Source: an uncultured delta proteobacterium (GTDB taxonomy: Bacteria; Desulfobacterota; Desulfobacteria; Desulfobacterales; B30-G6). From it: DNA of 64,000 nt. The notes under the pieces were generated by a model. That model was not told where the DNA came from. It did no database searches and worked only from the letters and a program-made list of their open reading frames with translations. The position numbers were made by a program, and so were the translations under genes. This document shows, in pieces, positions 26,904-60,121 of this stretch. The first letter of the stretch is position 1. Every line of letters starts with the position of its first letter. The stretch is taken from assembly GCA_963823335.1 (NCBI GenBank), contig CAWGLD010000004.1, forward strand, positions 4,382 to 68,381, in the 5' to 3' direction.

Positions 26904-27299
26904 ATGGTATTAGGTCATGAAAAATTAGACGTTTACCGCCTTTCAATCGGCTATGTCGCATGGGTTTATGAAAAGTGTGCCAGGCTGAGAGGCGTCCATC
27001 GTTCAGCAAGAGACCAGTGGCTTCGAGCCAGCCAGTCGATTGCGCTTAATATTGCAGAAGGCAACGGTAAGACAGCGAAGGCTGATCGGCGGCGATATTT
27101 CGAAATAGCGCGTGGGTCGGCATTGGAGTGTGCCGCAATCCAAGATGTCTTGGTAGTCGGAAAAGGTTTGGATAAAGTAGAAAGCCGGCAGCGCAAAGGT
27201 GAATTGGACCGCATTGCTGCAATGCTTAGTCGATTGGGCGGCAGGGGTTATAGCGTAAAGGAAGGGTTCGGGGAATACGGCTATACTGAACGGCAATAG
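26904..27299 (+). CDS. Four-helix-bundle protein (23S rRNA intervening-sequence protein / Avd-like family)
   Basis: KLDVYRLS...QWLRASQSIALNIAEGNGK...RRYFEIARGSALECAA, the family signature recalled for PF05635/TIGR02436-type proteins. Confidence 0.9.
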   Translation: MVLGHEKLDVYRLSIGYVAWVYEKCARLRGVHRSARDQWLRASQSIALNIAEGNGKTAKADRRRYFEIARGSALECAAIQDVLVVGKGLDKVESRQRKGELDRIAAMLSRLGGRGYSVKEGFGEYGYTERQ

Positions 27300-27403
27300 C
27301 GAGCGCATTCCCCGTAGCTTGCTGCGGGGTTAGCGAGCGAATCAAATAGATAAAATCCTTACCGCGAAGATTCCCTGCAGCTTGCTGCAGGGTACTCTTC
27401 AAT
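27298..27403 (-). repeat. Palindromic module family E, copy E2 (inverted relative to E3/E4)
   Basis: The reverse complement reads ATTGAAGAGTACCCTGCAGCAAGCTGCAGGGAAT...TTCGCTCGCTAACCCCGCAGCAAGCTACGGGGAATGCGCTCGCT. Confidence 0.8.
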
Positions 27404-27910: not shown

Positions 27911-28055
27911 ATTGAAGAACCTCGCAGCAAGCTACGAGGAATGTTCTGCTGTGCGACAGTGCTTCGCAGCGACCGTAAGGAATTCTGTCTAATTTAGATT
28001 CGCTCGCTAACCCCGCAGTAGGCTACGGGGAATGCGCTCGCTGTTGCGGTTCAAT
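27911..28055 (+). repeat. Palindromic module family E, copy E3 (full length)
   Basis: Three hairpins: CCTCG-CAGCAAGCTA-CGAGG, CTGCTG-TG-CGACAG and CCCCG-CAGTAGGCTA-CGGGG. Nearly identical to 41357-41525. Confidence 0.85.
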
Positions 28056-28084
28056 AAACCGTAAACGAGAGGTGAATAGACAAT

Positions 28085-28430: not shown

Positions 28431-28762
28431 GGATCATCTCCCAAAGAGTTGATCCAAATTAAGGATTCAAGGATTCCAGGGGCCCAGGGGTCGAGTGAGA
28501 TGAAGTGAGGTGCCAGCTAAATGCTTAAGAATTATAAAGAGTTAAATGTCTGGAAAAAAGCGTATAAACTTTGTTTGGATAAACGATGATATCCGGTGAT
28601 TTGGATTATATGAACAAGGAAAAGCTTCAGGGTTTAAGAGAGGCGCTTGGGAATGTAGAGAGAATGCTAAAAGCCATGATCACATCCCTGGAAAACAAAC
28701 ACTTGAATCCTTGAATCCTGGATTCCTTGAACCCTTTCTCCCAACTTATTGGGAGAAGATCC
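28431..28762 (+). mobile_element. Cassette copy C1: 4HB pseudogene with internal deletion, full termini
   Basis: GGATCATCTCCCAAAGAGTTGATCC...TCTCCCAACTTATTGGGAGAAGATCC. Remnants MLKNYKELNVWKKAYKLCLDKR* and, out of frame, GDLDYMNKEKLQGLREALGNVERMLKAMITSLENKHLNP*. Confidence 0.75.
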
Positions 28763-33700: not shown

Positions 33701-33934
33701 ATGTCCAGCCACGCATCCAATGCTAAGCTACTCTTCACCAATTGTATCAATCTCAACTCAAGAAGCTGCCGGTATACAAAGAAACCTGAAACTATCCTGT
33801 CCCTGTTCAGCGATCCAGAAAATTTCGCGGTCAGTGATCAGAAGATTCACGAACTGAACGACATATGTTCCCAATGTGATTCATACCATATGCCTGACAA
33901 ATTAAAAGATTTGGATCATCTCCCAAAGAGTTGA
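33701..33934 (+). CDS. Small Cys-rich protein (CX8C...CX2C), 3' end replaced by insertion of cassette C2
   Basis: Strong AAGGAGG lies 8 nt before ATG 33701. The reading frame enters the element at 33913, and removing the element restores ...PDKLKDLQ*. Confidence 0.45.
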   Translation: MSSHASNAKLLFTNCINLNSRSCRYTKKPETILSLFSDPENFAVSDQKIHELNDICSQCDSYHMPDKLKDLDHLPKS

Positions 33935-34174
33935 TCCAAATTAAGGATTCTAGGATTCCAGGAGTCCAGGGTTCGAGTGAGATGAAGTGAGGCATCAGCT
34001 AAATGCTTAAGAAGTATAAAGAGCTAAAAGTCTGGAAAACAAACACTTGAATCCTTGAATCCTGGACTCCTTGTACCCTTTCTCCCAACTAACCCTCATG
34101 TCCGGGGCGGTCACAACGAAGGATGAAAATATTGATGAGAATGATGGCTATTTTCATATAAATTGGGAGAAGAT
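33913..34174 (+). mobile_element. Miniature cassette copy C2 (ORF deleted) with a nested 72-nt insert in the terminal hairpin loop
   Basis: Flanked by ATTAAAAGATTT on both sides (33901-33912 and 34173-34184, with the rightmost AT shared with the element end). Confidence 0.8.
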
Positions 34175-34259
34175 TAAAAGATTTGCAGTGACCGTTGCGA
34201 TTCGTGCTATTTATACTTGCCTTATCTGCTTCCTGTAACTATATTGGATGATTAATTTT

Positions 34260-34454
34260 GGATCATCTCCCAAGGAGTTGATCCAAATTAAGGATTCAAG
34301 GATTCCAGGGGTCCAGGGCTCGAGTGAGATGAAGTGAGGCATCAGCTAAATGCTTAAGAATTATAAAGAGTTAAAAGTCTGGAAAACAAACACTTGAATC
34401 CTTGAATCCTTGACTCCTTGAACCCTTTCTCCCAATCTAATTGGGAGAAGATCC
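34260..34454 (+). mobile_element. Miniature cassette copy C3 (same deletion junction as C2)
   Basis: GGATCATCTCCCAAGGAG...ATGCTTAAGAATTATAAAGAGTTAAAAGTCTGG|AAAACAAACACTTGAATCC...TTGGGAGAAGATCC. Flanks are TTAATTTT / ATAACTTTTT. Confidence 0.8.
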
Positions 34455-34481
34455 ATAACTTTTTACAGAGGAGGATAGACA

Positions 34482-41356: not shown

Positions 41357-41525
41357 ATTGAAGAACCTCGCAGCAAGCTACGAGGAATGTTCTGTCGTGC
41401 GACAGTGCTTCGCAGCGACCGTAAGGAATTCTGTCTAATTTAGATTCGCTCGCTAACCCCGCAGCATGCGAAGCACTGCCGGACGGCAGAACCTACGGGG
41501 AATGCGCTCGCTGTTGCGGTTCAAC
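41357..41525 (+). repeat. Family E copy E4, with a 28-nt nested insert in the third hairpin loop
   Basis: Identical to E3 except for a CT/TC swap and the insert CATGCGAAGCACTGCCGGACGGCAGAAC (41465-41492). Confidence 0.85.
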
Positions 41526-42687: not shown

Positions 42688-42930
42688 TGGATCATCTCCA
42701 GAAGAGTTAATCCAAACTGAGTCTCCACCCGCGGAGCGGGCGGGCTCAGGATGCCCCCTCGAAGGGGGCTATAATATCCAATATCGACTATCGATTACAT
42801 GAATTTCGAAGTGATGGTTCTCAGCTTATGGTACAAAAGAAGATAGAGCGCAGCGATACCACACGTCAATATTCTACATTCCTTGTTCGATATTCATTAT
42901 TCTCTTTTATTTTCACCCGATCGGTATTCG
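42688..42930 (+). repeat. Family B copy B3, with a cassette-type left terminus GGATCATCTCCAGAAGAGTTAATCC
   Basis: It combines the C-family terminus with B-family internal modules. The right tail is truncated before the ABC permease start. Confidence 0.8.
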
Positions 42931-59695: not shown

Positions 59696-60106
59696 ATGGA
59701 CTACGCCTACCAACGACTGGACATCTGGAAAAAGGCGGTCGATCTTTCCATCAAGGTCATTCAATGTATCGCCGAAGTGGCCAATGAGGTTGAAACACAG
59801 CGCCTTACCGAGGAAATCGAAATGAGTGCCGTCAATATTGCCACAAACATCGCCAAGGGAAAAGCCTGTTTGTCGGAGGAGGATTTCATTTATTATCTGT
59901 TTTTGTCAAAAAGATCACTGTATGAAACCATGACACTGCTGGAAATTCTCAAAGCCAAACAGTTGATTACCGACGAGTGCTACATGGAAATCGAAACAAA
60001 AGGAAAAAACATCACTGGAATGCTGATTGAATTTATCCGCTCAGTCAAAGAAACCGGCAGCCCCTATCAGGCAGAAAACTACCAGGCTGCTTACAGAAAC
60101 CGATAG
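59696..60106 (+). CDS. Four-helix-bundle protein (divergent 23S-IVS-protein/Avd-like), copy a
   Basis: RLDIWKKAVDLSIKV...SAVNIATNIAKGK...FLSKRSLYETMTLLEIL. AAGGAGAG RBS before ATG 59696 (the track start at 59627 is less likely). Confidence 0.8.
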   Translation: MDYAYQRLDIWKKAVDLSIKVIQCIAEVANEVETQRLTEEIEMSAVNIATNIAKGKACLSEEDFIYYLFLSKRSLYETMTLLEILKAKQLITDECYMEIETKGKNITGMLIEFIRSVKETGSPYQAENYQAAYRNR

Positions 60107-60121
60107 AACAAAAGGAGATAA

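Follow-up and report, generated by a model that had tools for sequence, protein, structure and literature searches.

Separately inserted miniature copies of a non-autonomous four-helix-bundle cassette and the probable single origin of their common deletion

Two miniature repeats, C2 and C3, lie 83 nt apart and in direct orientation in the window (the whole 64,000-nt stretch of DNA analysed here), and both carry the same internal deletion of a longer element with a four-helix-bundle (4HB) open reading frame. Did this deletion arise once, in a form that was afterwards propagated, or did it arise in each copy where it now stands? C3 (34260..34454, + strand) is 195 nt long, with one hairpin at its left end (34260-34284), another at its right end (about 34426-34448) and an imperfect stem between them (about 34288-34421); its RNA fold (-70.8 kcal/mol, z = -5.4) contains precisely these three hairpins, two terminal ones and the central stem. 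C2 (33913..34176, + strand) spans 264 nt, of which 72 nt are a foreign insert and the rest a mini element of the same deletion class (class G). Relative to L021, a 510-nt full-length copy, positions 124-439 are missing from C2 and C3 alike, and both join AAAGTCTGG to AAAACAAACAC (in wider context, ...TAAAAGTCTGG to AAAACAAACACTTGAATCC...), which confirms the common junction reported in the initial annotation. The octamer CTGGAAAA marks the junction at 34379..34386 (+ strand) in C3 and at 34032-34039 in C2, and the 22-mer on the right side of the junction is present three times in the window compared with 0 expected. The earlier description of the junction as codon ~11 of the 4HB ORF fused to its last five codons is right as to the join itself; the fusion is out of frame, however, and the mini ORF reads MLKNYKELKVWKTNT followed by a stop. 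Taken as a whole, the best explanation, to which we assign a probability of roughly 0.6, is that C2 and C3 are independently inserted ~195-nt derivatives of a ~510-bp non-autonomous cassette and that their common deletion arose once, before the mini form was transposed.

The family to which the two copies belong is defined by its ends, 14-nt terminal inverted repeats (GGATCATCTCCCAA / TTGGGAGAAGATCC) that each lie within a small hairpin; GGATCATCTCCCAA and the reverse complement of the right end, GGATCTTCTCCCAA, agree at 13 of 14 positions. These repeats are found in C3 and in two further window copies, C1 and C0, while the last two bases are mutated in C2, where the right terminus has changed from GATCC to GATTA. 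Matches to the 14-nt end motif number eight in the window (0.86 expected). When one genome per species (185,579 representative genomes, the window's own genome not being among them) was scanned for the 25-nt hairpin of the left end, 76 loci with 78 left ends were returned, distributed over ~10 Desulfobacterales/Desulfatiglandales metagenome-assembled genomes (MAGs) whose syntenic blocks are 69-88% identical to the window (78-88% for the three closest). When target-site duplications were scored on the flanks of the 28 delimited complete copies, an 8-bp direct repeat was perfect in 13 and matched at 7/8 positions in 6 more, as compared with ~2% perfect 8-bp matches between randomly paired flanks; no perfect 9- or 10-bp flank repeat was present among the 28. 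The duplicated target sites are 87% A+T. Within the window, the duplication scores are 8/8 for C2, 8/8 for C0, 6/8 for C3 and 3/8 for C1.

The full-length copy L021, flanked by the perfect duplication TTATCTCA, has a single ORF of ~120 aa that matches PF05635 ("23S rRNA intervening sequence protein", E = 4.9e-40) and, weakly, bAvd. The cargo of the family is thus a PF05635 four-helix-bundle gene in the loop of an imperfect ~40-bp stem, with the L021 ORF starting just past the left arm and ending within the right arm. Main-group stem arms are built of 8-nt AGGRTTCN units, and arm duplexes have energies of -49 and -59 kcal/mol; in a comparison of cognate with non-cognate arms, all main-group arms share one 8-nt repeat unit and only C0 is distinct. 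Elements range from 144 to 510 nt (C0 measures 693 nt), and the sole ORF present is PF05635, whole or fragmentary. There is no transposase gene in any copy of the family, full-length copies included, and the whole family is therefore non-autonomous, made up of mobile insertion cassettes (its long forms) and MITEs, or miniature inverted-repeat transposable elements (its short forms). The MITE-like reading put forward earlier was accordingly right in substance, given the inverted repeats, the 8-bp duplications, the small size, the dispersal and the lack of a transposase, whereas the role of mobility gene that it had assigned to the 4HB ORF falls away, since the product is PF05635 and not a transposase and the full-length copies are non-autonomous too. 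No clean empty site was recovered by three syntenic comparisons and a joined-flank BLAST search, the left-end pattern had no match in viral contigs, and no Rfam family passed the gathering or E-value thresholds. Among plasmids, nothing resembled the full-length element beyond a distant similarity, at the coding level, to 4HB genes of Nostoc. At the small extreme stands an ultra-miniature derivative of ~55 nt (L050 2925-2980), in which hardly more is left than the right-end hairpin and, attached to it, the left terminal repeat; other copies lie less than 500 nt away from it, indicating that the elements cluster in AT-rich intergenic regions.

Are C2 and C3 separate insertions, or one insertion duplicated in place? 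Aligned over 181 positions, C2 and C3 share 95.0% identity (~9 mismatches and one indel, in line with the ~ten differences counted by eye before), and their similarity ends at the element boundaries (C2 1-180 aligns to 34260-34440), the flanks being unrelated. C2 ends at 34176 (...GGGAGAAGATTA) and not at 34174 as originally annotated, and with this end it is bracketed by the perfect 8-bp duplication AAAGATTT (left 33905..33912, right 34177-34184), which had been overlooked. C3 has flanks that had been described as an imperfect duplication, and they are indeed so: TTAATTTT (34252..34259) and its partner ATAACTTT (34455-34462) agree at 6/8 positions, as in a decayed 8-bp target-site duplication. 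Because the flanks are unrelated and the 8-bp duplications differ, separate insertion of C2 and C3 is well supported by the sequence comparison. Two adjacent copies in the same orientation could also result from a local, tandem segmental duplication in which one mini copy and its flanks were doubled together, and this had been named as an outcome that would overturn the earlier reading; with similarity limited to the element, unrelated flanks, and AAAGATTT around one copy versus TTAATTTT/ATAACTTT around the other, its probability is close to negligible.

Separate insertion can also be combined with gene conversion, in which the two elements inserted independently 83 nt apart and a deletion in one of them was copied to the other by short-patch recombination. 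Such exchange would be helped by the closeness, direct orientation and ~95% identity of the copies, and family elements often cluster (C0/C1 and C2/C3 in the window; L036, L042 and L050 elsewhere). The nine differences between C2 and C3 are, however, evenly distributed on either side of the junction; the identical tract around the junction measures ~37 nt, and there is no block of raised identity. Conversion is, in addition, superfluous for the dispersed deletion classes in other genomes (see below), and we consider it very unlikely here.

C2 lies two codons ahead of the stop of a small putative ORF (window 33701-33934) that has no Pfam match, altering its C-terminus from ...KDLQ to ...KDLDHLPKS (a stop codon following in each case). 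Just upstream of C2 (31911-33444), the gene for a 307-aa protein, whose precomputed Pfam match is PF08843 (AbiEii), overlaps that of a 205-aa partner for which no Pfam hit is recorded; the pair looks like an AbiEi/AbiEii-type toxin-antitoxin arrangement.

Whether the class G deletion has a single origin is a separate matter, on which a third copy in the window bears. C1 (28431..28762, + strand) is a 332-nt copy that had been described as the longer one; it is not full-length, having an internal deletion of its own (class F, L021 positions 151-328) and a broken ORF, and its flanks match at only 3/8 positions for an 8-bp duplication. The octamer CTGGAAAA is present in C1 at both class G breakpoints, as had been noted, with the first coordinate off by one base: the two octamers occupy 28550-28557 and 28688-28695, 138 nt apart. 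C1, C2 and C3 are about equidistant from each other (93.5-95% identity), each is 2-3% away from the family consensus, and, relative to this consensus, all of their substitutions are private to one copy. The comparison of copies that had been proposed as a check thus gives a star, with no substitution common to C2 and C3 alone, and the deletion is left as the sole derived character that unites them.

A census for the junction, proposed as another check, produced two copies only, C2 and C3: no third class G copy was found in the 185,579 representative genomes (the source genome not being among them) or in the JGI metagenomes. The class G junction is absent from ~80 related copies, and a metagenome scan with a 20-mer across the junction hit three loci, all of them unrelated chance matches. 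Nothing is on record for a 31-aa ORF that spans the junction, and a search with a 43-aa junction-spanning peptide gave no candidates. Short-read contigs of the same organism, located by exact-protein look-ups of neighbouring genes, break at the repeat; one of them (L080) begins at the junction octamer and confirms the right half of C3 only.

In principle, two longer copies (C1-like or full-length) could have inserted independently and each could then have lost the same segment by replication slippage, the mini form itself never having moved. Unlike the junctions of the other classes, the class G junction lies in an 8-nt direct repeat, and slippage could therefore yield it twice; between perfect 8-nt repeats it always gives the identical product. 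C1 proves that both octamers exist in this lineage at a distance of 138 nt, the 2-3% divergence of each copy from the consensus leaves ample time for such events, C2 and C3 have no derived substitution in common, and a third copy with the junction was not found. Against this, C1 has retained both octamers over a similar or longer time, no other pair with convergent junctions is seen among the ~80 related copies (the classes with multiple copies having only 0-3 nt of microhomology), and two identical rare events in two of the three window copies of the subfamily are less parsimonious than one. Recurrent deletion in place is, in our judgement, unlikely, if clearly less so than conversion, and a single origin of the class G deletion, followed by transposition, is favoured. 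Of the original proposal that one deletion occurred and its product was then copied to a site 90 nt away, the separate insertion stands and the single origin is favoured, no more firmly than that; nothing in the sequences marks either C2 or C3 as the donor of the other, and both may descend from an unseen master copy. The order of events that we infer under a single origin begins with slippage from one CTGGAAAA octamer to the other, which would have created the deletion in what was probably a full-length copy or one like C1; the resulting mini form, with both ends and both stem arms kept, would then have transposed to at least two sites.

The mobility of deleted forms can be read at the level of the whole family. 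Mapping every copy onto L021 defines several further junction classes. Class A (L021 114-317 deleted) has 15 copies on eight contigs of MAG CAVOZW and one in CAWJIL; nine complete copies were aligned, with a mean pairwise identity of 97.1%, and in the 13 copies examined, flanks and duplications are specific to the site. The other classes, B to F, number 2-4 copies apiece, and these too lie at different sites: four copies in CAVUUM for class B (207-379 deleted), two each for class C (157-418), class D (181-396) and class E (98-269), and, for class F (151-328), the window copy C1 together with a copy at a non-orthologous site in MAG JAOZSO (L047), where the C1 junction recurs. Microhomology at the class A-F junctions amounts to only 0-3 nt; recurrence cannot explain these classes, which must have spread by transposition. 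At the family level, therefore, the sequences clearly indicate that internally deleted forms with broken ORFs have multiplied, and an intact 4HB ORF is not needed in cis. The same conclusion, drawn originally from C2 and C3, is borne out family-wide by six junction classes at 2-15 dispersed sites, and it is firmly supported that copies without the ORF but with both ends and both stem arms are still mobilised.

The window holds a more distant member as well. C0 (26822..27514, + strand) is a sister element of 693 nt, bracketed by the perfect duplication ATATTTTA of 8 bp (26814-21 / 27515-22) and carrying an intact but divergent PF05635 ORF (26904-27299, Pfam E = 1.3e-18). Its stem consists of GGGATC repeats whose sequence is wholly unlike that of the main group (cognate arm duplex, -59 kcal/mol), while the right terminal repeat is the same as in the other copies; two divergent PF05635 ORF lineages in the window thus use the same ends. 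A C0-type copy, 99.8% identical, is found in another sample at a different locus, beside a different gene (L083 603-1107), from which we conclude that the family is currently active and that the C0-type element has moved recently. Another repeat family, unrelated to the first and made of palindromic GC-rich units (CCCGCAGCAAGCTACGAGG...), occurs at 27300-27400, 27918-28063 and 41364-41523, and one of its copies falls within C0, in the interval from the ORF to the right stem arm.

A solo left-end hairpin (42689..42716, + strand) is a remnant with unrelated sequence inside; unrelated GC-rich palindromes come next. A left end is present at the syntenic position in L005 (7412-7436), from a Desulfatiglandales genome that is only ~73% identical, and many of the 78 left ends in the MAGs are likewise without a recognisable right end. 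Two tandem four-helix-bundle genes (window 59697-60107 and from 60123 onward) encode proteins ~25% identical to the MITE-borne one; having no terminal repeats and no enclosing stem, and being syntenic in a related MAG (L050 3955-4293), they appear to be resident chromosomal paralogues.

What, then, is the extra sequence in C2? The 72 nt at 34090..34161 (+ strand), included before in the element, turn out to be a foreign IS110-family relic in the loop of the C2 right-end hairpin. At its boundaries, TCTCCCAAC is followed by TAACCC and CATATAA by ATTGGGAG, and between them ~46 nt of the 5' end of an insertion sequence (IS) are joined to ~15 nt of its 3' end. Both ends match those of a complete 1.6-kb IS at the same loop position in the full-length family copy L071 (2054-4161), itself flanked by the duplication TAAGATAA; this IS encodes a 419-aa DEDD transposase with PF01548 (5.8e-22) and PF02371 (5.3e-15) domains and hence belongs to the IS110 family. 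A 5'-truncated copy of this IS is found in a class A element (L003 2242-3365) and a 3' stub in L056 (3596-3759). L071 and C2 have the identical insertion point, from which the 3' junction of L003 deviates by no more than one base; three different backbones struck at the same loop position point to site-specific targeting of the hairpin. In the history of C2, the IS110-family element would have entered the right-end hairpin loop after the mini form had inserted and would then have decayed to 72 nt. As the mobiliser of the family, the nested IS110 element was rejected, being present in few copies only and sitting inside the ends.

We infer that a DDE-type transposase would act in trans on all forms, recognising their ends and making cuts staggered by 8 bp. 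Neither a cognate transposase, of the ISL3 family or any other, nor an autonomous partner turned up in the window or across ~600 kb of related loci; no ORF in the window looks like a transposase, and a search for inverted end pairs 650-3500 bp apart that enclose a long ORF recovered only composites of the MITE and the IS110 element. Right ends of the family read GG(A/C/G/T)TCTTCTCCCAA, several copies having exactly GGCTCTTC. ISL3-family elements have GGCTCTT ends and 8-bp duplications, and the combination of GG(N)TCTTC with an 8-bp duplication may, as a lead only, point to an ISL3-type enzyme; the likeness, in ends beginning GGCTCTT and in the 8-bp duplication, rests on one published example, ISArsp7. 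Two other mechanisms were considered and set aside. Transposition of a single strand by an IS200/IS605- or RAYT-type enzyme might be suggested by the hairpins at both ends, yet the elements have 8-bp duplications and terminal inverted repeats; retrotransposition aided by the Avd-like protein is at odds with the fixed length of the duplication and with ends that are inverted repeats.

The cargo is itself of interest. Intact ORFs of different lineages are ~75% identical, with dN ~0.18 and saturated dS, implying that the protein is functional somewhere, though many copies are pseudogenes; at least 7,948 close relatives (E <= 1e-10) are known, mostly on short contigs. Copies are co-oriented with the downstream gene in 16 cases compared with 4, and with the upstream gene in 15 compared with 7, and two unrelated stem designs (AGGRTTCN in the main group, GGGATC in C0) are both maintained; the co-orientation and the maintenance of both designs suggest that the hairpin matters at the RNA level. 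A Nitrospirae MAG (GCA_016195585.1, L094 479-930) contains the same stem-ORF-stem module between two genes, with 74% protein identity and GGNTTC-repeat arms as in the family, and without terminal hairpin repeats. Cassette and transposon ends may thus be modules that can come apart, and the cassette seems to have passed from one phylum to another.

A PF05635 ORF in a stem loop is also known from ribosomal RNA genes: the ORF-containing 23S rRNA intervening sequences of Leptospira and Coxiella have an S23p (PF05635) ORF in a stem loop, and their origin is still called unclear, a mobile element being one of the hypotheses (PMC4990558). The likeness to the present family extends to the same protein family in the loop of a long inverted-repeat stem, to a length of ~430-700 nt and to ORFs that are often degenerate. 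The family copies differ in that they are intergenic or at gene ends, multi-copy, and provided with terminal hairpin repeats and 8-bp duplications. Intervening sequences sit within helix 25 or 45 of the 23S rRNA, from which RNase III excises them; no rRNA is present in the window, where the copies lie between protein genes or at gene ends, and, location within rRNA being the defining feature, the elements are not intervening sequences. We tentatively propose, as a possibility that we hold to be distinctly less than even, that the hairpin-enclosed PF05635 cassette is a widespread mobile element and the mobile progenitor of the ORF-containing 23S intervening sequences, with a stem that is excised by RNase III and a protein that aids maintenance or spread. 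In this scheme, the cassette would move as DNA via its terminal repeats, generating 8-bp duplications; the long stem would let host RNase III cut the cassette from transcripts, with insertions into operons or rRNA being tolerated as a result; and the 4HB protein, Avd-like and under purifying selection, would serve the maintenance or spread of the element and not be a random passenger. Support for a progenitor role comes from the at least 7,948 relatives, from the Nitrospirae module that has no transposon ends, and from the two ORF lineages with the same ends.

That a deletion derivative which keeps both ends is still mobilised is textbook MITE biology, and what C2 and C3 display is ordinary MITE behaviour; the transposon family itself is without a description in the literature searched, where a search that was not exhaustive found no paper on PF05635 genes in elements with terminal repeats and target duplications. 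The family matters more for its cargo. Genes for 4HB / 23S intervening-sequence proteins, which are among the commonest unexplained small genes in some bacteria, can ride on a genuine transposon whose ends and target duplications are defined, which explains why 4HB genes are multi-copy and disrupt short-read assemblies, and the family opens a way, concrete enough to be tested, of tracing how ORF-containing rRNA intervening sequences originated.

Among known systems, the closest in general design are the bacterial MITEs such as Correia, Chunjie, QMITE1/2, RUP and others (reviewed in PMC10969869). Like these, the present elements are small, have terminal inverted repeats, duplications of fixed length and no transposase gene, and occur in many dispersed intergenic copies, with size variants that arise by internal deletion and with a fold into long hairpins; they differ in that their ends are small hairpins and their longest form is a 510-bp PF05635 cassette and not a transposase-bearing insertion sequence. 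The long forms can be compared with mobile insertion cassettes, of which MIC231 of Bacillus cereus, mobilised in trans by IS231A, is an example. In both cases, inverted repeats enclose a passenger gene, there is no transposase, movement depends on a function in trans, and shorter derivatives exist; the passenger here is always PF05635 and is enclosed in a long stem, and trans-mobilisation is predicted from sequence. The relic in C2, finally, adds to the cases in which an IS110-family element homes to the hairpin of a MITE. Insertions of IS1111 into the palindrome of QMITE2 in Coxiella burnetii (PMC5896051) are alike in that an IS110-family element occupies one fixed position in a MITE hairpin loop, whereas the host, the MITE and the target sequence are different and C2 retains only a 72-nt relic.
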